A stretch of 31,978 nt of DNA from Enterobacter phage phiT5282H: the sequence record MG589387.1, one strand, 5' to 3'. The notes below the pieces were generated by a model, which was given only the letters and a program-made list of their open reading frames with translations, was not told where the DNA came from and ran no database searches. A program made the position numbers and the translations under genes. Positions 1-23,283 of the stretch are shown piece after piece (position 1 is the first letter of the stretch; the number at the start of each line of letters is the position of its first letter).

Positions 1-147
1 TTAGATGCATCGAGTGTTGGCGGAACAGGTGGCTTGAATCCTTCTCAGGGTGAAAAAATATTTTTTGATGCCTCTCGCATTGTTCCTGTGGCGTCTGAAA
101 ACAGGCCGCGCAACGTTGCATTTAACTACATCGTGAGGGCTGCATAA
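1..147 (+). CDS. H: tail fibre protein, C-terminal 48 codons (3' end of gene H; 5' part lies off the window start)
   Basis: Frame 1 is open from base 1 to TAA at 145-147. It ends 1 nt into the ATG of the tail-fibre assembly gene (TAATG overlap), as for P2 H/G. Confidence 0.65.
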   Translation, partial: LDASSVGGTGGLNPSQGEKIFFDASRIVPVASENRPRNVAFNYIVRAA

Positions 148-743
148 TGTCAGAGGCAAAATTAAACAGCAATTTTATTGCGATAGTGGCCGGTGATATT
201 ACCGTGTTTAATTACGATGGCGAAACGCGCGAGTATCTTTCCTCATCCGTTGAATACCTGGCCGTTGGGGTTGGAATTCCCGCTAACTCATGCACTGATG
301 CGCCGGGTGAAAGTAAAGAAGATTTCACTATTTGCCGGTCAGCGGATTTTACCGCCTGGGAATACGTAGCTGATCACCGTGGAGAAACGGTATATAGCAC
401 TGAAACAGGTGAAGCGGTGATTATTTCCGCCCCCGGTGATTACCCAGATGACACCACTACGCTTGCACCGCCAACGCCTTACGACACATGGAACGGCAGC
501 GAGTGGGTGACGGATACGAAAGCGCAGCACGCAGCGGATGTGGAAGCGGCGGAGCAACAGAAGGCTGCGTTACTTGCAGAGGCACAAACAACGATCAGCC
601 TATGGCAGACCGAACTACAGTTAGGCATTATCAGCGATGAAGACAAAGCCAGCTTGATAGCATGGATGAAATACATCAAAGCTGTGCAGGCTGTTGATAC
701 GTCGAAAGCGCCGGACATTACCTGGCCGGATAAGCCAGAATAA
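147..743 (+). CDS. G: tail fibre assembly protein (P2 gpG / Tfa family)
   Basis: 198-aa ORF immediately after the tail-fibre stop. Size and N-terminal sequence are typical of Tfa chaperones. Confidence 0.8.
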   Translation: MSEAKLNSNFIAIVAGDITVFNYDGETREYLSSSVEYLAVGVGIPANSCTDAPGESKEDFTICRSADFTAWEYVADHRGETVYSTETGEAVIISAPGDYPDDTTTLAPPTPYDTWNGSEWVTDTKAQHAADVEAAEQQKAALLAEAQTTISLWQTELQLGIISDEDKASLIAWMKYIKAVQAVDTSKAPDITWPDKPE

Positions 744-860
744 GTCTGCATTCCGGCACGCACTGCCAGTTTTAACTGTGCTGGCCATGTGTATCGAGTA
801 TGATCATTTTTAACGGTGCTGCAGCACGGTCAGTTATGGCGGTGTGTTACGGAAGATGAA

Positions 861-885
861 GCGGGCAAATGCCCGCTTTAGTTTT
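861..885 (+). terminator. rho-independent terminator after G (gcgggc-aaat-gcccgc followed by TTTAGTTTT)
   Basis: Perfect 6-bp GC stem with 4-nt loop and T-rich tail, seen directly. It lies in the convergent G/U gap. Confidence 0.55.
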
Positions 886-897
886 ATATGGATACCG

Positions 898-1386
898 TCA
901 GAACAGGCCAGACAGCGTACTGCTGGCGGAGTTGTAGGCGGACGTGGCTTTATCCTTCAAACCTGAAAGCAGGTCGCCAACGGACGACGCTTGCAGGCGT
1001 TCGCGTAGGTCTTCATCACAACGCTGAAAGCTGATTGAAAACTCAATTTTTTTCGCCTTCCCGTAGCGGTCAAATTCCGTATGCGTGGCCTGTAGCCCGG
1101 TCAGCACATACATACCGTAAATCTGCCCCGCACCGCTGATTAAAGGCCAGGGACGCCCGGTGTATGCCTGGGTTGCCAGAACGGTAAGAGATACGTCGCC
1201 GCCCGTAATTTCAGGGTAAAGCACCCCGTCAAGGTTGATCTGCGTCTCCCCCGCGCCGATGTACTGCCATTTTGCCGATCGGTTGATGCGATCATTCTTC
1301 ACATGGCGCCAGTTCAGCGAGTGGCGAAGTTGCTGGTAAGGCAGCGTCTTCAGTTCAAAAACGAACATCCCGTATATCATCATCAT
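898..1386 (-). CDS. U: tail protein U
   Basis: 162 aa. N-terminus MMMIYGMFVFELKTLPYQQL... resembles P2 gpU (MMMVLGLFVF.LKT.PYQ). Confidence 0.85.
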   Translation of the reverse strand: MMMIYGMFVFELKTLPYQQLRHSLNWRHVKNDRINRSAKWQYIGAGETQINLDGVLYPEITGGDVSLTVLATQAYTGRPWPLISGAGQIYGMYVLTGLQATHTEFDRYGKAKKIEFSISFQRCDEDLRERLQASSVGDLLSGLKDKATSAYNSASSTLSGLF

Positions 1387-1400
1387 AATGTTGCTTCCCC

Positions 1401-4400
1401 TTAATCTCTGTCTTTGAAGCTGCCGCGATTGAGCCGCGCAAGGCGGGCCATTTCGGCATTCACTGCGTCGGCGGCAATCCGGCCAATTTCGCGCGCGTCC
1501 TGCCGGTCAACGCCGTGAAGATGTACGTGGATTTCTCCCGTAAAGCCGCCAGTGGCAACCGGTATATTGCTGGAGCTGCGGCTGACTGGCAGAAGTTCAG
1601 CCTGTTTAACGGGAAGCGATGCCGCTACCACTGCGGGGCGTGCGCTTAACCCGTTGTTCCTGACTGTGCTGGCCAGCTGCGATTCCTTCCATTCCCCACG
1701 AACGGCCAGCGCACGAGGCAGGCTTTTAAACACGATATCGCCGGGGCCGATCTTCTTCGTGTTGTCGGCTGTCGTTTTGGTGTTGCTGTCGATACTCTGC
1801 AACCTGCGCATAGTGCCGTTATCGCCGGTTAGCGGTGATGTGGGTTGCGGTGCGCCAGGCGGAACGTTATTCACCTCAACTTTTTTCGGTGCAACCTTCG
1901 CGATATCTCCCTGAAGAAGGGCGACTTTGTCCTGAAGAACAGCCATGCGCTGTGCGTCTTCGATCTTCTTTCTGGCTTTTTCGGCCTCATCAGGCAGAAC
2001 ACCGAGCTTTTCAAGGATCCAGGCTAATGTATCCAGCAGCATTTTTGCGGGAGCCAGGACAAGCTGGAGCGCACCGCCCAGGACATTGCCGAACACCTCA
2101 CCGGCGCTGGCGCATTTATCCAGTGTTTCTTTGCTGGACTCCATCGGGGAAAGCAGAGATTTGAACCAGTTAAAGACCTGGCTAACAGCGCTGCTTATCG
2201 CATCAAAGATAGGGCTAAACTGCGCGAAGGTCTCACGTAACGGGGCCAGTCTTTCCATGATGCCGGTAAATACACCCGCAAAAAATGCTTTAAGAGGCTC
2301 CCAATAACGCCAGATAAGAACCCCGGCAGCAACAAACGCCGCTACTATCAGGCCAATCGGACTCAACAGCAGTGACAGCGCAGTACCCAGCATAGACACA
2401 GCAGTTGTGATAATGCTCCATATGGTCGTAAAACCCGTAAGGCGAAGTGCAAGCATTCCGAGGTTTTTGGTCAGTGCGCCCAGCGCGGCACCAGGCGCAA
2501 GAAATACCCCCATAAGTGCGCCACGCATAGCGGGTATGATGGTTGAAACTCCCCGCATTTTCCCTGCTAATGAGCCGAGAACTGGCCCCCATCCGCGCAC
2601 GCTTGCCATTGCCGGGCCGGAAGCCGTGCCGAGTGTTCGCAGAGCGGCAACCGTTCCGGTTATGCCTCTGCCCCCCGTCAGTATGGTAAAACCTAGCTGA
2701 AGTTTAGCCAGCGGCCCCATCAGCAGGCCGACCGCCAGCGATGTGCCACCAATGGCGGCGGTCAGTGCCAGAACACTACCACCGACAACCAGCAGAGATT
2801 GGGTGAGCTTCGGATTTTCCTTCGCCCACTGCGTCATATTCCCCACAACGTCACTCAGTCCCTGAGTCAGGGCGCGGAGCTGATTATCGACGAGATCGTT
2901 AATCTGGATGCGGAAGCCTTCCCAGGCGCTGTCCAGATTTTTGAGATCGCCATCAAGGTTATCCGCCATTATTTTGGCGGCCTTCTGCGCCTCACCTTTG
3001 GCGTTTTTCAGTGCTTCCAGCAACTTCTGGAGTTCCCCACTCCCGGCTGACATAACCAGTGCCTGCAATGACTTTGACGCCTCTTCACCGGCGATATCTT
3101 TAAAGAAAGAGAGCTTGTCGGTATCGCCGTACTTGCTGATCTTTTTATAGAGTTCAGTGAGAACCTCTTCAGCAGGGCGCATTTTCCCCGTGGCGTCAGC
3201 AACGTCTACGCCCAGTTCCTTGAGGGCGGTTTTTGCCCTGCCGGTTGGCGCGGCAAGGCGTGAAAACGCGGCCTGTAATCCTGTACCGGCGATACTACCG
3301 CGCAGGCCTACGTTCGCCATTACGCCGATCATGGCTGTTGTCTGTTCGACGCTGACGCCAAGACTGGAAAGACCTGTCCCGGCGTACTTCATCGCCTCAC
3401 CGATATTTTGCAGATCGGTGTTGGTGCGGGTGAACGCCCCCGTTAGTACGTCACTGACGCGATCCATTTCTTTGGGATCGAGACGGAACTGAGACAGAAT
3501 ATTTGAGCTGATATCGGCGCTTTCGCCTAAATCCATACCACCGGCCAGCGCCATATTGAGCACGCCGGGCAGTGCGGCCTGAATGGCCTGCGGAGTGAAA
3601 CCGGCCATAGCGAGAAACGCCTGCCCGCTGGCGGCGTCAGTCGTGGTGAACTGCGTTTCAGCGCCCAGCTTTTTGGCCTGTTCACGAAGTGCGGAAAAGT
3701 CAACGGAGCTTTTGTCTATACGGGTCAGCGCCTGCACGCGGGACATTTCCCGGTCAAACCCAACTGCGGGGGATAAGAAGCGTCCCGCTGCGTAACCGGC
3801 AGCAGTGGCCCCGGCAACGGCCATCGTGCCACCGCCGCGAAGTTTACCCGCTGTTTGCTGCATCTGGTCATAGCGCGCCCGTGCCTGTGTGACAGCGGCA
3901 AGCTGTCGCCGTTCCCGCTCCAGCGTCTGGTTGTACTGTTCGGTTCGACGTATCGCGCTCTGAATGGTGCGATCGCTGCCGACCAGCGAAACGCCGTGGC
4001 TGCGCAGCGCCTGTGAGGCAGCACGCAGCTTAACCATTTCCTGCGTGCGTGCAGAGTTAAGGCGCTCCAGCTTTGCGGCCAGCGCTGCCATATGTGCTTT
4101 TTGCTTGTCTGTAAGCTGTGTACCTTCCCGCTGCGCCTGATTCAGCCCTTCAAGCGTCCGGCTGGCTTCGTCAATTTTGCGGGAGGTCTTTTGCACGCTG
4201 TCGCGCAGACGGTTGAACGTGCGGGACTGGCTGTCCAGATCTTTAATGCTGGATTGCGTTTTTTTGAGGGATTCTGACAAACCGCCCGCGCTCTGGCGGG
4301 CGGCATTGACCGGGCGGGTAAGTTTATCGATCGCGCTGAACGCGACGCGGATATTAAGGCTTTTCACTGTCACTGGCTCCACTTCGGACAGCCGCCCGCT

Positions 4401-4880: not shown

Positions 4881-5396
4881 TCAGTTACCCATTCCCAGCG
4901 CAGATGTAATGCGGTCAGGGTAGATATTCTTGCCGTCTTTCTTGTAGATGAAGTTCAGCAGGTCAAACTCAAACATCGGCTTGTCGTCGATGGTGAGCCT
5001 GTAATAGGTGTTCTTCATCGTGTAGCTGACGGAGGTGTCTTCTCCCTGCTTGCTTTCGCCGCCGTCCATTTCGGTGATGCGGCCGCGCAGTTCGACCTCA
5101 ACCAGCAGGCTTTCTCCATCGGTGTAATATTCACCGGCGAAGCGGAAGCGGGTTTCGTCGATATCGCCGCAGTAATTCAGCAGTAACGACTGAACCAGAC
5201 CGCCAACCACCATCGTGGTATCCAGTGCGCCACTGTCCAGACCGAGATCCACCGCAGCGGAGCCAATCATCCCGCCGCCCTGAAAGTCTTCAGTCTTGCG
5301 GGTCAGTTTTGGCAGCGTCACGGAAGAGACTTTGCCGATGCAGTTGCTGCCGTTCACAAAGCAGGTGAACAGGCGCAGTTTGTGAGGAACCGCCAT
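4881..5396 (-). CDS. FII: major tail tube protein FII
   Basis: 171 aa, directly downstream of the sheath gene. Tube-like sequence. Confidence 0.9.
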   Translation of the reverse strand: MAVPHKLRLFTCFVNGSNCIGKVSSVTLPKLTRKTEDFQGGGMIGSAAVDLGLDSGALDTTMVVGGLVQSLLLNYCGDIDETRFRFAGEYYTDGESLLVEVELRGRITEMDGGESKQGEDTSVSYTMKNTYYRLTIDDKPMFEFDLLNFIYKKDGKNIYPDRITSALGMGN

Positions 5397-6578
5397 TTAT
5401 GCACCTCCCAGGGAAGAAAACGCCGATTCGAAATACTCGTCCGTGAAGGTCTGGTAGAGCGTCAGATCTTCCATAGGCGGAACCGGTGTGTATTTATAGC
5501 GAATGCGTACCTGACCCTGACGGAGACCGGTTGTCGGGTTATCCAGGATATCAAACCAGCATTCAGCACCAATTAGCCGCCCCTGCGTCACCAGCGAATT
5601 GAGTTTGCCGCTGATGCCGCTGACCACGTCCTTAACGTTGGCAGGGGTCAGCGGTTCGTCCACTGATTCAAATTGCGCCTCAGCGATACTGTCAGCCAGA
5701 ATCTGTGCCGTTCGGGTATAAACCTCAAAGATATAATCTTTGGTGTCTGTAACGCGGTTGCCCCAGAACCGGAAACCGTTACGCTTGATGAGCGTCGTGA
5801 TCTCCTTGTTGTTCAGTTCGTTCGCGTCGCTGTCTTCGGCCTGAAGCGACCAGAAAACATCCTGTGAAATACCCAGCACGTTGCTTACCGACACATTGGA
5901 AAGCGATTTGTGCCAGCCCTGATTGTTGTCAATCAGAGCGCGAAGGCCGCAGGCATAGGCCGGGGCAGGGAAGGTTTCGTTTTCTCCTGTCTGCGGGTTG
6001 TATGCGATGAAATCAGGCCAGATAAGCATTAGCTCGCGATAGGCGAAGGTCGCACGATATGCGGTGGCTTCAGCCATCGTTTTGCATCCATAGCAACTGG
6101 CGTAAACAAACGCGCGCAGGTTTTGTGCAATGACGCACAGCGCGGAGGTCACTTCTTCCGTGTCGTAGCCCGGCACAGCCAGAATGCGCGGACGATAGCC
6201 GACCTTCTGCTCGGCAGTCAGAAACGCGTACATGCCGGTATAGCTGCCGTCTTCTGCCGTGCCACCCATGATGAGCTGCGACTGCGTTTTACTGCCTTCC
6301 TCTTCCGTGGCTGCTGCCACGCGCACAACGATAACCTTCGGACTGGTCTGGTCAGCGATGGCTTTGAGTGTTTTGTACAGGGAGCCGGTTTTACCCGCCT
6401 TACCCAGCACGTTGTTAACCCGCGTCAGCAACACGGGGGTATTCAGGGGAAAGGTTTCCGCGTCGGCATCATCCGCCACGGCAACGACCCCAATGACACT
6501 AGATTCAATGTCATTGATGGCCGTCACCAGGTCGGTATTCTCCCGGACGCGTACACCGTGGAAACGTGTCTCTGACAT
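5397..6578 (-). CDS. FI: tail sheath protein FI
   Basis: Start MSETRFHGVRV..., comparable to P2 FI MSDYHHGVQV. GGTGG RBS lies 8 nt upstream. The annotated ORF extends to 6623, but the internal ATG at 6578 is preferred. Confidence 0.85.
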   Translation of the reverse strand: MSETRFHGVRVRENTDLVTAINDIESSVIGVVAVADDADAETFPLNTPVLLTRVNNVLGKAGKTGSLYKTLKAIADQTSPKVIVVRVAAATEEEGSKTQSQLIMGGTAEDGSYTGMYAFLTAEQKVGYRPRILAVPGYDTEEVTSALCVIAQNLRAFVYASCYGCKTMAEATAYRATFAYRELMLIWPDFIAYNPQTGENETFPAPAYACGLRALIDNNQGWHKSLSNVSVSNVLGISQDVFWSLQAEDSDANELNNKEITTLIKRNGFRFWGNRVTDTKDYIFEVYTRTAQILADSIAEAQFESVDEPLTPANVKDVVSGISGKLNSLVTQGRLIGAECWFDILDNPTTGLRQGQVRIRYKYTPVPPMEDLTLYQTFTDEYFESAFSSLGGA

Positions 6579-6648
6579 GTTAGCCACCATTACGTTATTG
6601 AGTTCGCAGTGATAATCCCTCATGTCTGAACGCTACTCACGCTATTGC

Positions 6649-6678
6649 GGGTCTGGCCGGACGGCGACAACAAAAACC
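6649..6678. promoter_or_regulatory. putative Ogr-type late promoter activator element (GGTCTGGCC-N6-CGACAACAAAAACC; contains TCT-N12-ACA dyad) between divergent FI and D
   Basis: Near-identical element also at 22351-22379 between divergent P and O. It is centred about 55 bp from plausible start sites on both sides. Confidence 0.45.
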
Positions 6679-6731
6679 GATTTGGTCTCTCCCGCGCGCG
6701 TGGGATCCTTCGCCGGAAGAAGGGGGAAAGC

Positions 6732-7868
6732 ATGGCACTTACAGACCTGACTAAATCACTTAACGACGCCGGCAGCAGTTATAACGATTCACTGACCGAG
6801 GCAGTAAAAAGTCCGGGATTCAGCATTACGATGGGTGGCAAGGTACTGACGCAGCTTGATGATCGGATCATGTCGTTGTCACTGACGGACAATCGGGGTT
6901 TTGATGCCGATCAGCTGTCAATATCCATTGATGACAGTGATGGCATGGTTGCACTGCCGCCGCGTGGTGCTGAGCTTGCCGTATCATTTGGCTGGCTGGG
7001 TGAACCGCTGATTTACAAGGGGCTGTACACGGTTGACGAGGTTTCCCACGAAGGCCCGGCAGATACCATTGGCGTTACTGCCCGCAGCGCTGATTTTCGT
7101 GAAGAATTCAACGTAAAGCGCGAAGTCTCATGGCATGACGTGACCGTTGAGCGCGTTGTGTCGGCAATAGCGCACCGATACGGACTGAAGGCGCAGATCA
7201 GTGAAATGCTCATGGATATTGAGATTGATCACGCCGACCAGACGCAGGAAAGCGATATGTCTTTCCTTACCCGCATGGCGGAAATGCTGGGTGCAATTGC
7301 CACCGTCAAGAACGGCAGTCTGCTGTTTATTCTGCCGGGTGGTGGTTTGACCGCTGACGGAAAGGCGCTACCTTCTGCCAGCATTGACCGCACCAGTGGC
7401 GACCGGCACCGCTTTCGTATTGCCGATCGGGATGCGTATACCGGCGTCAGGGCTTACTGGCTGGATCTCAATTTCGGTAAAAAGAAAAAGGTCAGCGTTA
7501 AGCGCCGTAAGTCTGTAAAGCCCAAAAAAGAGAAGAGCAGCAGCCGTGAGGGCGATTACATGGAGGGCGCAGACGGTAACGTCTATGTGCTGCGCAAAAC
7601 CTACCAGAATGAAGAGGCGGCTAAACGTGCGGCGGCGGCAAAGTGGCAGCAGCTTCAGCGTGGCGCGGCAGAGTTTTCGATCACCCTGGCGCGTGGCCGC
7701 GCTGAGCTTTACCCGGAAATGCACGTGACGGTTAGCGGTTTTAAGGATGAAATAGATAATCAGGACTGGATCATTGCGCGTGCTGAGCACGTCATAGACG
7801 ACAGCGGTTTTACCACCCGGCTGGAGCTGGAAGCAAAAATACCTGACTGGATAGCGGAAACTGAATAA
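6732..7868 (+). CDS. D: tail protein D (late control gene D family)
   Basis: Start MALTDLTKSL with AAGGGGGAAAG RBS. About 378 aa, followed directly by ogr as in P2. Confidence 0.9.
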   Translation: MALTDLTKSLNDAGSSYNDSLTEAVKSPGFSITMGGKVLTQLDDRIMSLSLTDNRGFDADQLSISIDDSDGMVALPPRGAELAVSFGWLGEPLIYKGLYTVDEVSHEGPADTIGVTARSADFREEFNVKREVSWHDVTVERVVSAIAHRYGLKAQISEMLMDIEIDHADQTQESDMSFLTRMAEMLGAIATVKNGSLLFILPGGGLTADGKALPSASIDRTSGDRHRFRIADRDAYTGVRAYWLDLNFGKKKKVSVKRRKSVKPKKEKSSSREGDYMEGADGNVYVLRKTYQNEEAAKRAAAAKWQQLQRGAAEFSITLARGRAELYPEMHVTVSGFKDEIDNQDWIIARAEHVIDDSGFTTRLELEAKIPDWIAETE

Positions 7869-7907
7869 AATGAAATGGAGTTCAACTCCCACAGGGGAGC
7901 CATCATT

Positions 7908-8156
7908 ATGTTCAGATGTCCATTCTGCGGCGCTATGGCCCGCACCCGTACCAGCCGTAAAATAACCGATATGACAATCCGTCAATATCACCAGTGTCAG
8001 AATCTGGAATGTAGCCGGTCATTCACCACGCTTAACAGCGTGGAAAGGGAAGTAACAAAACGCGCAGGTACAGCGCCGTTACCGCCTGACTTTATCCCCC
8101 GCGATGCCTTCCCGGCGTCTCACTATGGAAAGGATCAGCTAAATCTAGCCCTCTAA
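7908..8156 (+). CDS. ogr: Ogr/Delta-family zinc-finger late transcription activator
   Basis: MFRCPFCGAMARTRTSRKITDMTIRQYHQCQNLECSRSF matches the P2 Ogr C-X2-C...C-X4-C motif (MFHCPLCQHAAHARTSRYITDTT..YHQCQNVNCS). Confidence 0.85.
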   Translation: MFRCPFCGAMARTRTSRKITDMTIRQYHQCQNLECSRSFTTLNSVEREVTKRAGTAPLPPDFIPRDAFPASHYGKDQLNLAL

Positions 8157-8195
8157 CGCTACGCCAAATGACGGGGCCAAGGAGATGGTCGCCCC

Positions 8196-8229
8196 ACCCT
8201 GTGAGCGGTACGCTGGCAGGGTGTTTTCT
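8196..8229 (+). terminator. rho-independent terminator after ogr (accctg...cagggt, then GTTTTCT)
   Basis: Stem with an extended internal AGCG/CGCT pairing and a T-rich tail, seen in sequence. Confidence 0.5.
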
Positions 8230-8268
8230 ATTAATTCAATGTCTAATCGAAAAATTAGTAAGATATTA

Positions 8269-9066
8269 TTATAAGGATGAGCTTTTGATTTTTTTTGAAG
8301 GATCCATCATATATGTGGTTATAGTATTATCCTGATCTACTTCTACTATCCTAAATCCATGATAATCAGTTCCCCAACTTCCACCAAAGTGACCATCAAA
8401 TACAAATGGGATATCATTTTTTATTAACACTTCGTCATGGTCATGGTCGTGACCATTGAATACAGCTTTAACATTTTTGTATTCTGATAGTAGAGAAAGG
8501 AGTTGATCGCATTCAACGGCAAAGTGAGTTTGCGCTACAGGATTAATATGCATAAATATAAATACATTTTCTTTTGCTTTGTGCTCTCTTAGTTTGTTAG
8601 TTAGCCAAGAGAGATCGGGACAAAGATACGTGCCAGCTAAATCTGACGTAGACATGATTAAAAAGGCATTTCTATCAATCGTGAAATCAAAGTCCATAGG
8701 ATAGCCCCATATATTCACCCATTCTTCTGGAGTGGCGGGGTCATGATTTCCTTTACTTACAAAATATTTCATTGAAAGCAAATCTAACTGTTTTTTTGCG
8801 GGTTGAAAGTATTTTTTATCATCATGCACAATATCGCCATTAATGACGCAAAAATCGACGTTATTGTTTTTGCTAAATTCATTAACCGCGCTAACAAAAA
8901 CGCTGTAGTTTTTCTTATAATCAGTGATTTTTTCACCATAATGACCATCTGACGCGATAGCAAATCGAAGTTTTTTATCGCTGTTAGCTTTGTTAGCGCC
9001 ACCAAAGAAATCGCAACCAGATAAAGCAACTCCTGCTGATAGAATTAAAAAATCACGCCTATTCAT
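8269..9066 (-). CDS. Tat-signal lipoprotein, calcineurin-like metallophosphoesterase (moron/cargo gene)
   Basis: Start MNRRDFLILSAGVALSGCDF carries an RRxFL twin-arginine motif and an LSGC lipobox. GAGGTGG RBS is upstream. Phosphoesterase motifs DGHYG, GDIVHDD, GNHD, GHDHDHD are present. The region is conspicuously AT-rich compared with flanking phage genes. Confidence 0.8.
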   Translation of the reverse strand: MNRRDFLILSAGVALSGCDFFGGANKANSDKKLRFAIASDGHYGEKITDYKKNYSVFVSAVNEFSKNNNVDFCVINGDIVHDDKKYFQPAKKQLDLLSMKYFVSKGNHDPATPEEWVNIWGYPMDFDFTIDRNAFLIMSTSDLAGTYLCPDLSWLTNKLREHKAKENVFIFMHINPVAQTHFAVECDQLLSLLSEYKNVKAVFNGHDHDHDEVLIKNDIPFVFDGHFGGSWGTDYHGFRIVEVDQDNTITTYMMDPSKKIKSSSL

Positions 9067-9145
9067 ATTGTTAGCCACCTCATTAGCAAAAATTGCGGAT
9101 ATTGTAGCAAACATAAGCGTTTTTGTTACGTTTTCAGCCAAAAGC

Positions 9146-9178
9146 AATGAAGCCAAACCTATGACGTTTGGCTTCATT
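9146..9178. repeat. 13-bp perfect inverted repeat AATGAAGCCAAAC-N7-GTTTGGCTTCATT
   Basis: Seen directly. It lies upstream of the moron promoter (-35 GTAACA / -10 TACAAT candidates) and downstream of the int operon on the minus strand. Confidence 0.5.
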
Positions 9179-13262: not shown

Positions 13263-15631
13263 CCACGGAAACCCGTGGCCGTCGCGCCCCTTCTCCACCT
13301 CCACCGTATCCGGGTAGCACTGACAATGCTATCCCTTACGCTTATGGGGGAAACAAACCATACCAGCCTATTGGCGTTGATGTCGCGCCGGGGCTGGATG
13401 GTTTCGACTATCTCACGCCGGACGGCAGGCGCAAGCATATTGCGTTCAGTGAACTGGTAGCGGAAGACGAAAAGCCGGAGCGCAGCAAGCTGCTGCGTCG
13501 CCGTCTGGCTTCACTTCCGCAGTATATCCGCCGCCACTTTGCCGCGAAGCTGGATGCACTGGACGCGAAAGACCGCAAAGCGGCAGATCACTGGCTGGTT
13601 AATACCTTTGAGCGCCACGTATTAACGCGAATTGATAGCGTGAACAGTGTTTACCAGCCTGACACTATGATGCCCGGCATTCTGCTGCCAATTCGCGATC
13701 AGCTTTTCCGTATGCTCTGGGCAGGGAAGAAAGAGTTAAAAAGACTGGCTTATACGCTTGCCGATATCTTTACGAGCGAGTTTATACGCGAGTCCGATCA
13801 CCAATTGGCACGCACCGGAGATCCTGAGTTCGCGGCGCTTTCTGGCTATGGCCGTATTGCGTCGCTGGCGGTGCATCTGAAAACGCCGATCCCCGGCTGG
13901 ACGGCGTATTGCAATGAAGAACTGGAAGCGGAGGACGCGTTACGCGCGGTTCTTCGCCTTGAGTCACCGCAGTGGTGGTTAAACCGCCTGCGCCGTATCC
14001 ATGCCCGGTGGCGTGAGCATTTGATGATCGCAGCGGGATACGTCCAGAAAAAATCTTCCCCATACAGTAGCGCCCCGTGCCTTACGGAATGGCTGGCCCA
14101 GAAAAAGGCTAACCGTGAATACCTCAAGGCTATGGAACTGGAAGATCAGGACACGGGCGAGCGCATTTCACTGATCGATAAAGTCGCTGGCAGTGTTGCC
14201 AATCCGGCCAACCGTCGCCGCGAACTCATGACGAGAATGCGCGGCTTTGAAGATCTGGCGAAGCTGGAAGGGCTGGCCGGTGACTTCTACACGCTGACAG
14301 CACCTTCCCGTTACCACTCCATGCAGCATAACGGGCGCCGCAATAATAAATACTGTGGCGCGTCGCCGCGCGAGACGCAGCAATATCTTTGCAAAGTCTG
14401 GGCGAGAACCCGCGCAGCGTGGAAGAGAAAAGGGATCCGCGTCTTTGGTTTTCGCGTGGTCGAACCGCACCACGATGCAACGCCACACTGGCATTTACTT
14501 CTTTTTATGCGCCCGGAATGCGTCGAGCAGGCGCGCGAAATCTTCCGTAAATATGCCCTGAAAGAAGACGGCAACGAACCGGGAGCGCAGGAAAACCGCT
14601 TTCAGGTTGTGCCGATCGACGATGCCCACGGCAGCGCAACCGGCTACATAGCGAAATACATTTCGAAGAATATCGACGGCTTCGCGCTGGATGGTGAGAA
14701 AGACGACGAAACCGGGGAAGACCTGAAAGAAATGTCACTCCGCGTTAGCGCGTGGGCATCGCGCTGGGCTATTCGTCAGTTTCAGCAGATCGGCGGTGCG
14801 CCGGTCACGGTATATCGCGAACTTCGCCGCCTGGGCGATCGCGAACTGGTGTTACACCCTGAACTGGAAACCGCCCGGCAGGCCGCTAACGGTGGCGAAT
14901 GGGATAACTACGTATTAGCCCAGGGTGGCCCATTGGTTGAGCGCGATAAGCTGCGCATCCGTCTGAATTATGAAACCACTGAAAACGGCAACGCCTACGG
15001 CGATAACGTCCAGCGAATCACAGGTATTTACTGCCCTATTACGGGCAATGACTCTTTGATCTTCACCCGCACCACTCAATACAAAATCGTGCCGAAGCGC
15101 CAGAGCGCTGACGGTGTGGCCGTTGACGTTGGTTTTTCAGGCGGCAGCGCCGCCCCTCGGAGTTCTGTCAATAACTGTACGCGGGATCCCGCGGCAGGTG
15201 CTGACGGTCTTGAACATGCCGATCATGAAGTGAGTGAGACGGTGAATTTTGATGCGCTTTCCCGGCAGGGAAAGAGGGAACTGGCGCAGAGGTTGAAAGA
15301 GGACTTGAAGCGAACTCGTAAGAAACTGTCACATCAACGGCAAGAAGGGTCTGGGCTGTCAATCAAAGAGAAACATATTCATGAGCTTCTTTCTTTACGC
15401 GGAGTTGATGCAAGCGCTGCAATGGTCAGATCGCTAATTGCTGGTTCATCTTTAGCCTGTGGGGATCAGGTAATGAGCGTAAGCAATGGGAAGTTAAAAT
15501 CAAGTAGTCGCGCTGGTGCAGGAATAGGCATGCTGCCGACACAAGTGAAGGAGATAAAAGATAAAACTGTAGAACTTATCAATCGTTGGAAACGAGTATT
15601 GGCAGTATGTTCGAGTAAACTTACTGGATAG
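13259..15631 (+). CDS. A: replication initiation protein A (rolling-circle nickase)
   Basis: 790 aa. Active-site region TGYIAKYISKNIDG (paired Tyr) and HWHLLLF motif, as in the P2 gpA family. Confidence 0.9.
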   Translation: MTTETRGRRAPSPPPPYPGSTDNAIPYAYGGNKPYQPIGVDVAPGLDGFDYLTPDGRRKHIAFSELVAEDEKPERSKLLRRRLASLPQYIRRHFAAKLDALDAKDRKAADHWLVNTFERHVLTRIDSVNSVYQPDTMMPGILLPIRDQLFRMLWAGKKELKRLAYTLADIFTSEFIRESDHQLARTGDPEFAALSGYGRIASLAVHLKTPIPGWTAYCNEELEAEDALRAVLRLESPQWWLNRLRRIHARWREHLMIAAGYVQKKSSPYSSAPCLTEWLAQKKANREYLKAMELEDQDTGERISLIDKVAGSVANPANRRRELMTRMRGFEDLAKLEGLAGDFYTLTAPSRYHSMQHNGRRNNKYCGASPRETQQYLCKVWARTRAAWKRKGIRVFGFRVVEPHHDATPHWHLLLFMRPECVEQAREIFRKYALKEDGNEPGAQENRFQVVPIDDAHGSATGYIAKYISKNIDGFALDGEKDDETGEDLKEMSLRVSAWASRWAIRQFQQIGGAPVTVYRELRRLGDRELVLHPELETARQAANGGEWDNYVLAQGGPLVERDKLRIRLNYETTENGNAYGDNVQRITGIYCPITGNDSLIFTRTTQYKIVPKRQSADGVAVDVGFSGGSAAPRSSVNNCTRDPAAGADGLEHADHEVSETVNFDALSRQGKRELAQRLKEDLKRTRKKLSHQRQEGSGLSIKEKHIHELLSLRGVDASAAMVRSLIAGSSLACGDQVMSVSNGKLKSSSRAGAGIGMLPTQVKEIKDKTVELINRWKRVLAVCSSKLTG

Positions 15632-15733
15632 ATTTTATGCTGATTATCCATACAGTAAAAAAGTGAGGATACTCTTTGAATAACGTTATTCAGAGTGGTA
15701 AGATTAGGCATTAATTTTCATTAACATAGTTAC

Positions 15734-15749
15734 CAACTTATGTAAGTTG
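15734..15749. promoter_or_regulatory. perfect 16-bp palindrome CAACTTA-TG-TAAGTTG about 20 bp upstream of the ATPase start
   Basis: Seen directly in the AT-rich 137-bp gap after gene A. Candidate operator. Confidence 0.45.
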
Positions 15750-15768
15750 ATGTTTTATTGGGGGTTTT

Positions 15769-16851
15769 ATGGTAAATGTGCGGGAGGATGAACTTTTCAA
15801 ACTCATCGAGCAAGGCATCAAAGGCAACGCAAATGCATTTACACTCCTATGCAGAAAGATGATTAACAACATCCGTAAAAATGATGAGACCTTAGCTTCT
15901 AAGCTGGCTTCGTTAGTTGCTGAGGGAACAGTATTGCGTGGGGCATCTAGTAATGCTCCTATGCCTGTGGATGGAGACTCCAGACGAAACCTTTTGCAGG
16001 AAACATCTGTCAACGCAATTGTTGAAGAACCTGTATGGAATTCGGATATCTCAAAGAAGCTGGAGTCAATTGTTAACGAAAGAGAGAATGCAGTTTCTTT
16101 GTTCAAAGCCGGTCTTGAACCTGTAAAAACGGTTTTACTTTCTGGCCCGCCAGGCGTAGGCAAAACAATGTCCGCACATTGGCTTGCTGCAAAGTTAAAT
16201 TTACCTCTTTTAACATTGGATCTCTCATCTGTAATGAGTTCTCTTTTGGGAAAAACAGGCAATAATATTAAATCCGTTATGGATTATGCCAAAGAGAAAC
16301 CATGTGTCCTTTTGCTTGATGAATTTGATGCTGTTGCAAAAAGACGTGATGATGACAGGGACGTTGGAGAATTAAAACGTTTAGTTACTGTACTCCTACA
16401 GACCATAGATGAATGGCCAGCGACCTCGCTTCTTGTTGCTGCGACTAATCACCCTGATATCTTAGATCCGGCTGTTTGGCGTCGATTTGAGCATATCCTT
16501 AAATTTAATATGCCATCAGTAGAACTGATAGATAGATATTTAGTTAATCATGATATTGAGCCTGAATTATCTAAAAAACTTGCACCATTATTAGATGGCA
16601 TGTCCTTTGCCATTATTAACCGTATTTTGAATTTCTCCAAAAAGAATGAAGTGCTTAGAAATGTTCCATTTGAAAGTTCATTAATAGAGGCCGTAGTTAC
16701 GGAGAGGGTTTCATTGGATGATTTTAGCGATAATGATCTCAATATAATTAAATATCATTTTGACGGTATTTCAAATAGGAAGATAGCTGAATTAGTTGGT
16801 GTTTCACATCCAACAATCGCGAATAAATTACAAAAGTGGGGGGTTAAATGA
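15769..16851 (+). CDS. classical AAA+ ATPase with C-terminal HTH (LuxR/sigma-70 region-4-like) domain
   Basis: Walker A LLSGPPGVGKTM, Walker B CVLLLDEFD, sensor/second region of homology VAATNHPDILDPAVWRRFE. C-terminal ISNRKIAELVGVSHPTIANKLQKWG. GGGGG RBS. Low GC. Confidence 0.85.
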   Translation: MVNVREDELFKLIEQGIKGNANAFTLLCRKMINNIRKNDETLASKLASLVAEGTVLRGASSNAPMPVDGDSRRNLLQETSVNAIVEEPVWNSDISKKLESIVNERENAVSLFKAGLEPVKTVLLSGPPGVGKTMSAHWLAAKLNLPLLTLDLSSVMSSLLGKTGNNIKSVMDYAKEKPCVLLLDEFDAVAKRRDDDRDVGELKRLVTVLLQTIDEWPATSLLVAATNHPDILDPAVWRRFEHILKFNMPSVELIDRYLVNHDIEPELSKKLAPLLDGMSFAIINRILNFSKKNEVLRNVPFESSLIEAVVTERVSLDDFSDNDLNIIKYHFDGISNRKIAELVGVSHPTIANKLQKWGVK

Positions 16852-19498: not shown

Positions 19499-20557
19499 TT
19501 ACTCGTCTTTGAGCAGAGCGTAGGGATTGAAGCGGATCACTTCCTGACCGAGCCAGTCATTGACGCCTTTCATTGCTTCCATCACAGGCAACATTTCGTT
19601 GATGGCAAAGACGCGCGCGGCTTTCTCAACATCACCGAGCGAGCCGTTGCCTTCCGGCATTGCGCCCATCAGTTGCGGCGGGATGCGGTGAGCGTCGCGG
19701 AGATCGTTGCGCGTTGCTGATTTGATGTTAAGAAACTCATCCTTTGCCGATATCTGGCTGAACGGCAATAGTTGCACGCCGTCTTTGCCGCCGCCCGGCG
19801 CGTGGATCAGCACGTTTTTGAAGGAGCCTTTCCCTCTGGCCTGTGACAGCGTCTTTTGCACCACCTTTATGCTTTCCTGATCCACCTTCTCCGAGCCGAC
19901 ATAGAGAATACATCCGGCGTGAGAGCCGTTGTCGTAATAGAGTTTGCGGAACTTATCGGCGGAATGTGACAGGCTGGCGGACAGAAGCGCCCCCATGTAT
20001 TCCGGCATACCGTAGATTTCCTGATGAATGTCCGGGTTCATGATGTGGCAGACCTCGCCCGCCTTAAACTCGTATTCATCTTTCCACTGCCGGATAAACC
20101 AGTAGGTATCAAGATCGCTTCCCCGTCGCGTGTTCAGCGCCGGAACATGCTTAAGTTTTAGCGGCTCTCCCAGGTGATTAGACCGACGCTCAAGATAGGC
20201 ATTGCCGAAGACGAACCAGTCCAGCGCAAACGCAGAGAAGGCCTGCCGCGAGAGTAACGGATGAGGGATATAGCACCCGGTCAGCACATTGCGTTTGAAG
20301 TAAAGCGCCGACTGATGCAGCGGGGACTGTGTGAACGCACGGGTTAACCCCTTCCAGTCTATTGGCGTCTCGTAGTACCGACCGTTATCGACGCAGCACA
20401 TGCTGTCCAGCAGATCATAGCCGTCTGTTACTGAATATGGCCCGTCAAACGTGAAGGCGCTGAGCGCCGGATCGCTTCTGAGAGCGTCAGAGATATCAGG
20501 CTGTCCGGCACTGCCACTGCTGGCAGTGTGTTTGTTTTTGTAGGTGCGCTTCTTCAT
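19499..20557 (-). CDS. Q: portal protein Q
   Basis: 352 aa, first gene leftward from cos, followed by terminase P, as in P2. Confidence 0.85.
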   Translation of the reverse strand: MKKRTYKNKHTASSGSAGQPDISDALRSDPALSAFTFDGPYSVTDGYDLLDSMCCVDNGRYYETPIDWKGLTRAFTQSPLHQSALYFKRNVLTGCYIPHPLLSRQAFSAFALDWFVFGNAYLERRSNHLGEPLKLKHVPALNTRRGSDLDTYWFIRQWKDEYEFKAGEVCHIMNPDIHQEIYGMPEYMGALLSASLSHSADKFRKLYYDNGSHAGCILYVGSEKVDQESIKVVQKTLSQARGKGSFKNVLIHAPGGGKDGVQLLPFSQISAKDEFLNIKSATRNDLRDAHRIPPQLMGAMPEGNGSLGDVEKAARVFAINEMLPVMEAMKGVNDWLGQEVIRFNPYALLKDE

Positions 20558-22287
20558 CAGAACTCCATAGCAAACCCGCCGCTGCCACTCTCCTGGCCCA
20601 ACGGTTCGTTAATAATGGCGAGCATATTCGCCCAGGCTAAATCACCGTGGCTGACGCCGCGCGAGCGGTCAGTGTCATAGGTGATGAATCCGCCAGGCGT
20701 CTTTACCTTGCGAACAGAGTTAAATGCGTTGATCAGCGCGCGCTCGCTGCGGTCATATTCCCAGCGCCCGGCGCGGATCAGTTGTAGCATTTTCAACACC
20801 AGGGCGCGCTTTGACGTCATTGACATGGTGTAGGGCATTGCCATCGGGAAGAACTTCTTCACTATCTGGTAAACGGCCTCACCGTTACCGCCCGTCACGT
20901 CGATGCCGACATGCTGCACGTTGTATTTGAAGGTGAAGTTTTCGATAACTTTCGCCTGCTCTTCAAATTCAAGGCCGCGCACCTGTTCCGTTTCCACCGT
21001 GCGGAATTTACCGCCCGGCACCAGTGGCGGCACCACAACGCAAATCGCGCCGCTGTCACCGTTGCCGCTGCTGCCGTTGGCGTCATAACCTATCCAGACT
21101 GGGCGATTACCCATCGGTCTGGACGCGAAAGGCTTCCAGTCCGGCCATTCGTCGTAACCATCTACCCCGCAGCCAATCAGGGCGTTAAGGTTGAAGGCAG
21201 ACTCGCCATCGCGAACGAACTCGCACATGTACAGGTTGCGGAATTCATCCTCGCTGTTTTCATCCTGAATTTCTTCAAGATCGGTATACTCCCAGCCGTG
21301 GTCTATCACATCCTTCAGGGTGACAATCTGACGCCAGGTTTTATCCGGACATAACAGCCCGCTGTTCAGCGTTTTCCAGCCCACATCAAACGCTTTGCGC
21401 TGTGCCTTCGGGCGTTTCTCATTCCAGCGATCGCCCGTCCAGAACGGATAAGCCTCATGGGTCTCACCTGACGGCGTGGAAAAGTAAGTACGTGTCAGCC
21501 CCTTCAGCGTTGCCATCGCACCCGCAACCTTTCGCAGGTTGGTGAAGTTGCTGACCCAGAAGAATTCGTCAAACTTCAGGTTGCCCGTATATGACTGCGC
21601 TGTTGCAGCGGACGTGCCGAGGAAATGCAGCTCTGCGCCGTTACTCAGTACGATTTTGTCACCGCCCTTAAGCTCAACGTCCACCTCTTCCGCCATCTTC
21701 TGAATGAATCCCCTGAACTGGTGCGCCTGACGGCGGGATGCAGACAGAAATATCTGGTTGCGCTGGTACGGGTATTTCACATCATCGCGCAGCGCATCAA
21801 GCAACGCCTCGCGTGCAAAGTACCAGGTTGCGCCAATCTGGCGGGACTTCAGTATCATGCGGTTTCGGTGGTGGCGTTGCTCATACCAGCCGCGTTGATG
21901 CCACGAAAGGGAATCAAGTATTTTCTCCCGCAGCGCGACGATCTGTTCTTCGGTGAAGTGGTTTTTCAGCTTGCGCTTGCGTGGCTTTTTGCCCGCGCCA
22001 GCCCCTGCCGGTTGTCCGGCAGACAGCTTTTTCAGTTGCCGGGTCAGCAGGTCAATCTCCTTGAAGTCTCCCCCGGTCTTATCTTTCTTGTCCGTAAGCT
22101 GGATGAGGCGCGCATCCATCGACTGGCTGACGCGCTGTACGGGCGGCGTTTCATACCATTCATCGCGTTTCTTCCAGGCGTAAATTGTGTTCTGATTAAT
22201 CCCCATCAGGCGCGCGATCTCCGCTGGCGGGTAGCCCTGCCAGTAAAGTTGTTTTGCCCTCTGACGTACAAAAGTGTCCTGTATCAT
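20557..22287 (-). CDS. P: terminase large (ATPase) subunit P
   Basis: 576 aa. N-terminal ...AKQLYWQGYPPAEIARLMGINQNTIYAWKKRDEW HTH-like region typical of P2-family gpP. Confidence 0.9.
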   Translation of the reverse strand: MIQDTFVRQRAKQLYWQGYPPAEIARLMGINQNTIYAWKKRDEWYETPPVQRVSQSMDARLIQLTDKKDKTGGDFKEIDLLTRQLKKLSAGQPAGAGAGKKPRKRKLKNHFTEEQIVALREKILDSLSWHQRGWYEQRHHRNRMILKSRQIGATWYFAREALLDALRDDVKYPYQRNQIFLSASRRQAHQFRGFIQKMAEEVDVELKGGDKIVLSNGAELHFLGTSAATAQSYTGNLKFDEFFWVSNFTNLRKVAGAMATLKGLTRTYFSTPSGETHEAYPFWTGDRWNEKRPKAQRKAFDVGWKTLNSGLLCPDKTWRQIVTLKDVIDHGWEYTDLEEIQDENSEDEFRNLYMCEFVRDGESAFNLNALIGCGVDGYDEWPDWKPFASRPMGNRPVWIGYDANGSSGNGDSGAICVVVPPLVPGGKFRTVETEQVRGLEFEEQAKVIENFTFKYNVQHVGIDVTGGNGEAVYQIVKKFFPMAMPYTMSMTSKRALVLKMLQLIRAGRWEYDRSERALINAFNSVRKVKTPGGFITYDTDRSRGVSHGDLAWANMLAIINEPLGQESGSGGFAMEF

Positions 22288-22350
22288 CTGCCCTCCACCG
22301 TTTATGGAGTGAAGATTACCCCGCGCGCGATCCCGCTATCGCCCCCTTTA

Positions 22351-22379
22351 TGGTCTGGCCTTCCTCCGACAACAAAACC
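22351..22379. promoter_or_regulatory. putative late promoter activator element (TGGTCTGGCC-N6-CGACAACAAAACC; TCT-N12-ACA) between divergent P and O
   Basis: Second copy of the 6649-6678 element. It is centred about 52-57 bp from plausible transcription start sites of both P and O. Confidence 0.45.
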
Positions 22380-22446
22380 TCGTTGAGACAGCAAGTTACG
22401 CTCTGCCATCATGGCCGTACAGAAACCACTCAACAGGATTATCGAC

Positions 22447-23283
22447 ATGGCTAGCGCAGCTAAACCAGCCCGTAAGAAATTCCGCGTTGCTGTCTCTGGT
22501 GCCACCGTTGACGGGCGTGAAATTCGCCCTGAGCACCTTCGTGATGCAGCAGCAAACTACAGCCCCGACGTGTACGGCGCACGCGTCAACGTGGAGCACT
22601 ATCTTTCGCCGTTCCCCGGCAGTGATTTCGGCGCGATGGGGGATGTGACGGCGCTGAGTGCGGAAGATATCAGCGAAGGCCCGCTTGCCGGACGCACTGC
22701 GCTTTACGCCGAGATTGAACCTTCTGAGCGCATGAAGAAGCTGACGGAAGAAGGTAAGAAAATTTACTCCAGCATTGAACTGCATCCGCAGTTTGCGCTT
22801 AACGGCAAGGCGTATGTCATGGGGCTGGCGATGACCGATACCCCGGCCAGCCTCGGCACTGAGCGCCTGAAATTTGCCGCGCAGCAACGTCAGCAGGTTA
22901 TGTCCTTCAACAATCAGCAGGGTGAAGCCCCGCTGTTCACCGATGCCATTGAGGCAGAAATTATCGAACTGGCTGAGCAGCGCAGCGATGAAGGTAAGCA
23001 GTGGTTCGGGCGCGTCATGGGGATTATCGGCAAAGGCCGTAAATCTGACGGTGAACAATTCAGCCAGGTGCGCGACGCCGTGGAGAACGTCGCCCAATCC
23101 CATGCCGATCTGCTGGACAGTTTTAACGACCTGAGCCGCGCCCGCGAGCAGGACAGCCAGGCTATCCAGAAGCTGACCTCCGATCTTGCCGCGCTGACCA
23201 GCAAGCTGGGAAGCACTGACGCCAATTTCAGCCAGCGGGAACCCGCGAGCGGTGGCGCTAACGCGCAACTGGCTGATTACTGA
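22447..23283 (+). CDS. O: capsid scaffolding protein O
   Basis: FRVAVSGATVDGREIRPEHL...YGARVNVEHY parallels P2 gpO (FRIGVEGDTCDGRVISAQDI...YGCRINLEHL). The ATG at 22447 is preferred over 22411. Confidence 0.85.
   Translation: MASAAKPARKKFRVAVSGATVDGREIRPEHLRDAAANYSPDVYGARVNVEHYLSPFPGSDFGAMGDVTALSAEDISEGPLAGRTALYAEIEPSERMKKLTEEGKKIYSSIELHPQFALNGKAYVMGLAMTDTPASLGTERLKFAAQQRQQVMSFNNQQGEAPLFTDAIEAEIIELAEQRSDEGKQWFGRVMGIIGKGRKSDGEQFSQVRDAVENVAQSHADLLDSFNDLSRAREQDSQAIQKLTSDLAALTSKLGSTDANFSQREPASGGANAQLADY

Follow-up and report, generated by a model that had tools for sequence, protein, structure and literature searches.

P2 Ogr, P4 Delta and 186 B act via the C-terminal domain of the RNA polymerase alpha subunit; the late promoters dependent on them need both the activator and this domain, and rpoA109-type mutants block their transcription. 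Statements on P2 and 186 are taken here from the feature tables of their RefSeq records (NC_001895 and NC_001317, respectively). For P2, a single "activator binding site; pO, pP promoters" is annotated at 3057-3087, and the two mapped starts, 3016(-) and 3127(+), are located 111 bp apart, with a TGT-N12-CCA dyad centred 55.5 bp from both of them. The tail sheath operon of P2 has a promoter PF with an activator site at 17555-17583, a start at 17626-28 and the FI ATG at 17652, while gene D, the last one of the F operon, has no promoter of its own. For 186, B-protein sites are annotated at 3798-3817 ("activation of pV and p12 promoters") and at 14091-14110 (for pJ). Since both records annotate one site for the P/O-type pair of promoters, the mechanism of a shared site is already known. 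Predicted Ogr motifs of the TGT/ACA type also precede late genes in more distant P2-like phages (PMC3931495, PMC5694545). In Smp131, PP' and PO' are listed as one 18-bp site read on two strands (PMC3931495), and in phiRSY1 and phiRSA1 the motif TGTTGT-N13-ACAACA precedes the start codons of late genes by 50-90 bp, with no sigma-70 promoters there (PMC5694545). These phages differ from the one described here in the spacing, the extended half-sites and the host groups.

The window analysed is the whole stretch of 31,978 nucleotides from Enterobacter phage phiT5282H (MG589387.1). It represents a P2-like (Peduoviridae) genome, in which an integrase, a C-like repressor, Cox, replication protein A and a portal protein were identified with Pfam. 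Two copies of a short element are located directly upstream of late morphogenetic operons, one between the sheath gene FI and gene D and the other between the terminase gene P and the scaffold gene O. These gene identities had been assigned in the original prediction and were confirmed by the Pfam sheath, GPD, terminase and GPO domains (Table 1). The operon headed by O has the order O-N-M-L-lysis-R-S-V-W-J-I-H-G and includes head, lysis, tail-completion, baseplate and fibre genes. Relative to P2 and 186, the FI-FII-E-T-U block is inverted, which makes FI and D divergent; the same FI/D layout was found in Klebsiella phages 3LV2017 and ST16-OXA48phi5.4, Escherichia phage P88 and Serratia phage KSP20.

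Table 1. Positions in the phiT5282H window of the predicted activator sites and promoters, the flanking late genes, the activator gene and a probable terminator.
Feature	Position	Strand	Details
GC-rich hairpin, probable bidirectional terminator	857..880	.	10-bp stem, then T-run; role from position only
FI, tail sheath, first gene of leftward FI-FII-E-T-U operon	5397..6578	-	Pfam Phage_sheath_1, 1.1e-21
FI -10 hexamer, predicted	6612..6617	-	GATTAT; 43.5-48.5 bp from dyad centre; predicted start ~6605
Activator site 1, predicted (FI/D junction)	6650..6675	+	TCT (6652-54)-N12-ACA (6667-69); centre 6660.5
D promoter core, predicted	6693..6709	+	CGCGCGCG (6693-6700), extended -10 TG (6701-02)-G-GATCCT (6704-09); predicted start ~6716
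D, baseplate hub ("late control D"), divergent from FI	6732..7868	+	Pfam Phage_GPD, 1.4e-17
ogr homologue, C4 zinc-finger, presumed activator for both sites	7908..8156	+	Pfam Ogr_Delta, 6.3e-17
P, terminase large subunit, first gene of leftward P-Q operon	20557..22287	-	Pfam Terminase_6N, Terminase_6C, Terminase_5
P promoter core, predicted	22313..22329	-	CGCGCGCG (22329 to 22322), then TAATCT (22318 to 22313); predicted start ~22306
Activator site 2, predicted (P/O junction)	22352..22377	+	TCT (22354-56)-N12-ACA (22369-71); centre 22362.5
O promoter, predicted	22383..22412	+	TTGAGA (22383-88), 18-bp spacer, TG-C-CATCAT (22404-12); predicted start ~22418-22419
O, scaffold/protease, heads long rightward operon	22447..23283	+	Pfam Phage_GPO, 2.1e-95

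FI probably starts at the ATG at 6578 and not at 6623, where the mechanical ORF begins; translation from 6578 gives an N-terminus beginning MSETRFHGV, presumably similar to the start of P2 FI. The ATG of D is preceded by a Shine-Dalgarno-like AAGGGGGAAA, and all relatives align at the likely O start, ATG 22447. The mechanical ORFs 5397-6623, 6645-7868 and 22411-23283 have 5' ends that are too long and cross the promoter regions. Spurious small ORFs are also present in the same gaps in the database records of relatives (P88 33155-33286, ST16-OXA48phi5.4 15645-15761). At the other end of the FI-U operon, the hairpin listed in Table 1 is located between the convergent tail-fibre assembly gene (147-743, plus strand) and U (898-1386, minus strand), and it probably terminates two convergent late operons, the long rightward one and FI-U.

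Some cargo genes were identified elsewhere in the window. A pair encoding the IetA/IetS anti-phage defence system (15769-19052, plus strand), an AAA ATPase (PADLOC IetA, 1.9e-88) and an S8 protease (IetS, 1.9e-41), is located between replication gene A and the portal gene, which is the cargo hotspot occupied by old/tin in P2. A gene of a calcineurin-like metallophosphoesterase (8269-9177, minus strand; Pfam Metallophos, 5.5e-13) is found in an AT-rich stretch between ogr and the integrase gene, and is probably a lysogenic-conversion or defence cargo beside the attachment site.

Both strings quoted in the original prediction are present in the window as given, on the plus strand. A search of the whole window for GGTCTGGCC-N6-CGACAACAAAA revealed only the two junction copies (plus strand, 0 mismatches), as expected from the earlier claim of a shared element of roughly 29 bp at both junctions, and no third copy was found even with up to 3 mismatches allowed. 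The number of matches expected by chance is 0.01, and two matches occurred in 0 of 100 shuffled sequences. A repeat finder described the element as a 26-nt family with two copies, of which only the 26-bp core is common while the flanks differ. The strong half of site 1, GACAACAAAAA, is on the D-facing side, and that of site 2, GACAACAAAA, on the O-facing side.

Both copies contain TCT-N12-ACA, which matches five of the six dyad bases of TGT-N12-ACA; the own sites of P2 and 186 (TGT-N12-CCA) are likewise one base off this dyad. Plain searches of the window for TGT-N12-ACA and TCT-N12-ACA were rejected as evidence, because they gave 8 and 9 matches, respectively, scattered through coding regions. 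The longer patterns T-N-T-N12-ACAAC and ACAACAAAA were each found in the window at the two junction sites only. A weight matrix was built on 57 orthologous sites and used to scan the window; the two copies scored 41.2 and 40.8 bits, nothing else exceeded 8 bits, and the best score in 30 shuffles was 15.9. In both the pattern and the weight-matrix scans, the element was absent from the early/immunity region and from the coding regions of the window. No comparable copy upstream of V or R had been noticed originally, and the matrix scan agrees, as it gave no third site in the window; this is consistent with the overlap of S and V and with the missing P2-style PV.

For comparison, loci were fetched through their D or O proteins and not through the motif. 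In nearly all of them, T[C/G]T-N12-ACAAC has a fixed position relative to the gene, starting ~77-87 bp before the ATG of D and ~90-99 bp before the ATG of O. That the TCT-N12-ACA of phiT5282H is one mismatch from TGT-N12-ACA, as initially proposed, is in accord with the orthologous positions, where perfect GTTGTG-N10-CACAAC (that is, TGT-N12-ACA) is found in several lineages, and at both junctions of 3LV2017. The TCT form occurs at both junctions in the lineage of the window, in P88 and in ST16-OXA48phi5.4 (TCT-N12-ACAACAAAA twice in each of the latter two), and CCT was found in a few close relatives. Thus, the "mismatch" is a lineage-specific state of a degenerate half-site, and the other half is nearly invariant.

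The same pattern was seen in MAFFT alignments of non-redundant regions (14 for P/O, 17 for FI/D), with conservation expressed as the mean fraction of sequences having the commonest base of each column. The right half-site reached 0.95 in FI/D and 0.93 in P/O, and the left half-site 0.81 and 0.79, respectively. The four -10-like blocks were conserved at 0.80-0.96 and the CGCGCGCG blocks on the P and D sides at 0.91-0.97, compared with 0.58-0.64 (FI/D) and 0.53-0.69 (P/O) for the spacers, the length of which is nearly constant. Free variation, including 1-nt indels, is seen in the N6 spacer and in those around it, whereas the half-site and the -10 blocks are fixed. A conserved A-tract reaches past the dyad.

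Exact matches of the motif were searched in IMG/VR and in GTDB representative genomes, and their flanks were classed by tblastn with the proteins of the window. The motif was found in 133 stretches, 115 from IMG/VR and 18 from GTDB representative genomes; the latter belong to Kosakonia, Enterobacter, Mixta, Pantoea, Izhakiella, Erwinia and Klebsiella, and two copies per genome occur in several of them. Both exact sites are present in strains of Kosakonia oryziphila, Enterobacter hormaechei (B17-3) and Pantoea stewartii (ATCC 8199). Nearly all matches (129 of 133) are located at the two junctions, 85 between P(-) and O(+) and 44 between FI(-) and D(+), in the same orientation throughout, with the GACAACAAAA half directed at O or D in each of the 129. 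The other four are unrelated chance sequences in non-enterobacterial MAGs. The element is therefore specific to the two junctions and no dispersed repeat, the latter being what the original prediction had named as evidence against itself. Megablast of positions 5000-9000 against the phage collection gave no match, and a search in distant mode revealed relatives at ~67-74% DNA identity.

Exactly one site is present per junction, in the middle of an intergenic region of ~155 bp. On all four sides, -10-like hexamers were found 43.5-49.5 bp from the dyad centre, at mirror-image offsets, and therefore the starts are predicted ~55.5-56.5 bp from the dyad centre on each side; for the O side, the alignment with the mapped P2 start gives 55.5 bp between dyad centre and start. 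The predicted starts are symmetric about the dyad, with a spacing of ~111 bp at one junction (6605/6716) and ~113 bp at the other (22306/22419). The original distance of 50-60 bp between the element and the start sites of both flanking genes thus holds for the predicted transcription starts and not for the likely start codons, which are 72-85 bp away. Measured from the dyad centre to the ATG, these distances are 72 bp for D, 83 bp for FI, 85 bp for O and 76 bp for P in the window, and 83 bp for PF, 96 bp for O and 79 bp for P in P2, with none for D.

The -10 block of FI is conserved at 0.87 at the same offset, where relatives have GATTAT, GAATAT, AATCAT or GATGAT. The putative D promoter core is kept in relatives as CGCGCGCG-TG-n-nAnnnT at a fixed offset, and the blocks of the putative P promoter core are 0.96-0.97 conserved. 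On the O side, TGCCATCAT is 0.96 conserved and aligns with P2 TGCCGACATG upstream of the mapped O start of P2. A consensus scan of the region revealed a sigma-70-type promoter only for O (TTGAGA-18-CATCAT, 9/12 consensus matches). FI, D and P gave no such match, as is expected of late promoters that depend on an activator (PMC5694545). With a 5/6 match to the -35 plus an extended -10, O is a partial exception to the poor -35 elements, and the D and O promoters, both with extended -10, could have some activator-independent activity.

Two further conserved blocks were observed near the predicted starts. An identical CGCGCGCG is present at 6693-6700 and 22322-22329, at about -23 to -16 of the predicted D and P promoters. 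On the minus strand, GAACTCAA (6600-6607), at or just past the predicted FI start, is almost invariant in all FI/D relatives and conserved more strongly than the rest of the FI leader. As a matter of speculation, the A-tract on the D and O sides (about -44 to -40) might serve as a proximal UP-like element for the alpha subunit C-terminal domain.

The window also encodes a homologue of Ogr, which shares 47% identity with P2 Ogr over 64 amino acids and has an intact CX2CX22CX4C motif. Its ATG is located 39 bp past the stop codon of D (the gap is 81 bp in P2). A sigma-70-like CTGACT-17-TAAAAT at 7843-7871 overlaps the D stop codon; such matches occur in the region at chance frequency. The ogr gene may have its own promoter and, in addition, be transcribed by read-through from the presumably Ogr-dependent D promoter, which would constitute a positive feedback loop. 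The Ogr proteins of this clade are 82-83 amino acids long and possess a conserved C-terminal FPASHYG..QL.L tail that is missing in the 72-residue P2 Ogr. The residues past the fourth cysteine differ between lineages with TCT and TGT sites (ECS[R/E]SF versus ECGLSF/ECSITF), a comparison confounded by phylogeny, because only ~2-3 independent lineages are involved. Residues beside the fourth cysteine may co-vary with the half-site shift.

Given the sequence, uniqueness, conservation and geometry of the two copies and the presence of an activator gene, it is very likely that the copies serve as upstream activator sites for the phage's own Ogr-family protein, each common to two divergent late promoters. 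The Ogr homologue would bind each site and, by analogy with P2, P4 and 186, recruit RNA polymerase to both flanking promoters via the C-terminal domain of the alpha subunit. Each site would be centred at about -55.5 to -56.5 of both predicted starts, with a weak -10-like hexamer on each side, extended by TG for D and O, and with no usable -35 except that of O. The two sites would thus switch on four late operons: P-Q, O through the fibre genes, FI-U, and D, probably together with ogr by read-through. The proposal that one Ogr-type site serves two divergent late promoters, made when the element was first noticed, is therefore strengthened by computation, in which binding, activator dependence, transcription starts and use in both directions are predicted from the sequence. 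For the FI/D junction, bidirectional use is suggested by the symmetry and the conserved -10-like blocks. It is uncertain whether both half-sites are recognised symmetrically, since the left half is degenerate (TCT, replaced by CCT in a few of the close relatives). The invariant GACAACAAAA half, which outreaches the classical dyad, may account for most of the recognition.

The sites might also be true Ogr sites of which each serves only one flanking promoter, for instance those of FI and O, with the other gene, most likely D, driven by an activator-independent extended -10 promoter or by another signal. This is unlikely in our estimate, but several features speak for it: D has a conserved TG-n-hexamer extended -10, able to work without a -35 or an activator; its promoter would be a recent acquisition, since D of P2, at the end of the F operon, has none of its own; and the strong half always faces D or O, making the element functionally asymmetric in sequence. 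Against this stand the conserved -10-like blocks, which in diverged lineages flank each of the two sites at mirror-image offsets. Moreover, the homologous P/O-type site of P2 and 186 is annotated for both promoters, and D is a structural tail protein required simultaneously with FI.

Much less probable is a role unrelated to Ogr, in which the element would be bound by another protein (for example the immunity repressor, Cox, IHF or one of the host) or would form a hairpin in DNA or RNA. The departure of the left half from the classical TGT and the extension of the conserved A-tract beyond the dyad would agree with a different binder; however, no copy is present in the early/immunity region, and relatives carry the canonical TGT-N12-ACA at the same positions. 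A hairpin or RNA element was rejected, as neither site folds better than shuffled sequence (folding z-scores -0.06 and +0.60), and by the predicted starts the site would be upstream of both transcripts. It is scarcely credible, and the least probable of these explanations, that the copies represent a non-functional repeat, whether as a relic of the tail inversion, as a dispersed repeat of a generic kind or as a portion of small ORFs that overlap. Mechanical ORFs (6645-7868, 22254-22454 and 22302-22505) do span both regions, and small ORFs are annotated in the equivalent gaps of P88 and ST16-OXA48phi5.4. Yet the spacers vary with 1-nt indels around fixed half-site and -10 blocks, which is a regulatory pattern, and the small ORFs across the gaps were rejected on account of these indels and variable spacers. 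As for a relic or a repeat, the two copies have only the 26-bp core in common, their flanks being different, and none was found in the coding regions of the window; a generic repeat was rejected, with two copies only in the window and no weaker third.

With the two copies read as Ogr-type sites shared by divergent promoters, the FI/D junction would be most simply explained by an inversion of a block carrying the PF site together with FI-U, which would have placed the dyad beside D; D might then have acquired its extended -10 after the inversion. The second bidirectional junction was probably made by inversion of the FI-U tail block. The specificity of the activator may have shifted to an asymmetric site, with an invariant TTTTGTTGTC half and a loose second half (ACA to AGA/AGG on the opposite strand). 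A combination of all these points, namely a bidirectional site made by inversion, a late regulon of two sites, D-ogr feedback and possibly asymmetric specificity, can be put forward only tentatively, and we regard it as rather doubtful as a whole. Equally tentative is its extension to a clade of Xuanwuvirus, Reginaelenavirus, Reipivirus and their relatives, in which a formerly unidirectional sheath site would have been altered in this way.

A late regulatory map, comprising two sites, four promoters and the likely -10 elements and starts, may now be annotated for a widespread group of enterobacterial P2-like prophages, found in Klebsiella, Enterobacter, Kosakonia, Pantoea and Erwinia, as well as for E. 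coli P88-like phages. The FI/D junction would also represent a natural example of an inversion that makes a dyad-symmetric, class-I-type activator site bidirectional, with no new mechanism revealed. In the searchable literature, no description was found of the second bidirectional junction (FI/D) or of the lineage-specific asymmetric form of the site.

The PP/PO region of P2 resembles the P/O junction of phiT5282H in the location of the site between terminase P and scaffold O, in its partial dyad and in the homologous TGCC-N-CATG block on the O side. It is also similar on the P side, where a GC-rich CGCGGGGCGCG in P2 PP stands at the place of the CGCGCGCG of the phiT5282H P-side core. The polarity differs: in P2, GTTGTG-N11-CCA has its strong half towards P, whereas in phiT5282H the strong half, GACAACAAAA with the A-tract, points to O and TCT forms the weak half. 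P2 PF is the orthologous promoter of the sheath operon, with the same 83 bp from dyad centre to ATG as in phiT5282H FI and, in both phages, a strong TTGT half distal and a weak half proximal to FI. PF is, however, unidirectional, with fun(Z) upstream and D downstream in the operon, while the phiT5282H site is flanked by the divergent D. The same gene order and the same site polarity at both junctions are shared by 3LV2017 (Reginaelenavirus), ST16-OXA48phi5.4 (Reipivirus) and P88 (Xuanwuvirus), at ~67-74% DNA identity to the window, and in the records of these phages the sites and promoters are unannotated. Phage 186 is similar to phiT5282H in having just two annotated activator sites, one shared by the divergent promoters of the terminase and scaffold genes and one in front of the sheath gene, and in the position of the activator gene directly after D. 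The sheath-gene site of 186 serves one direction only, since D ends the same operon, whereas in phiT5282H D is transcribed divergently from the site.
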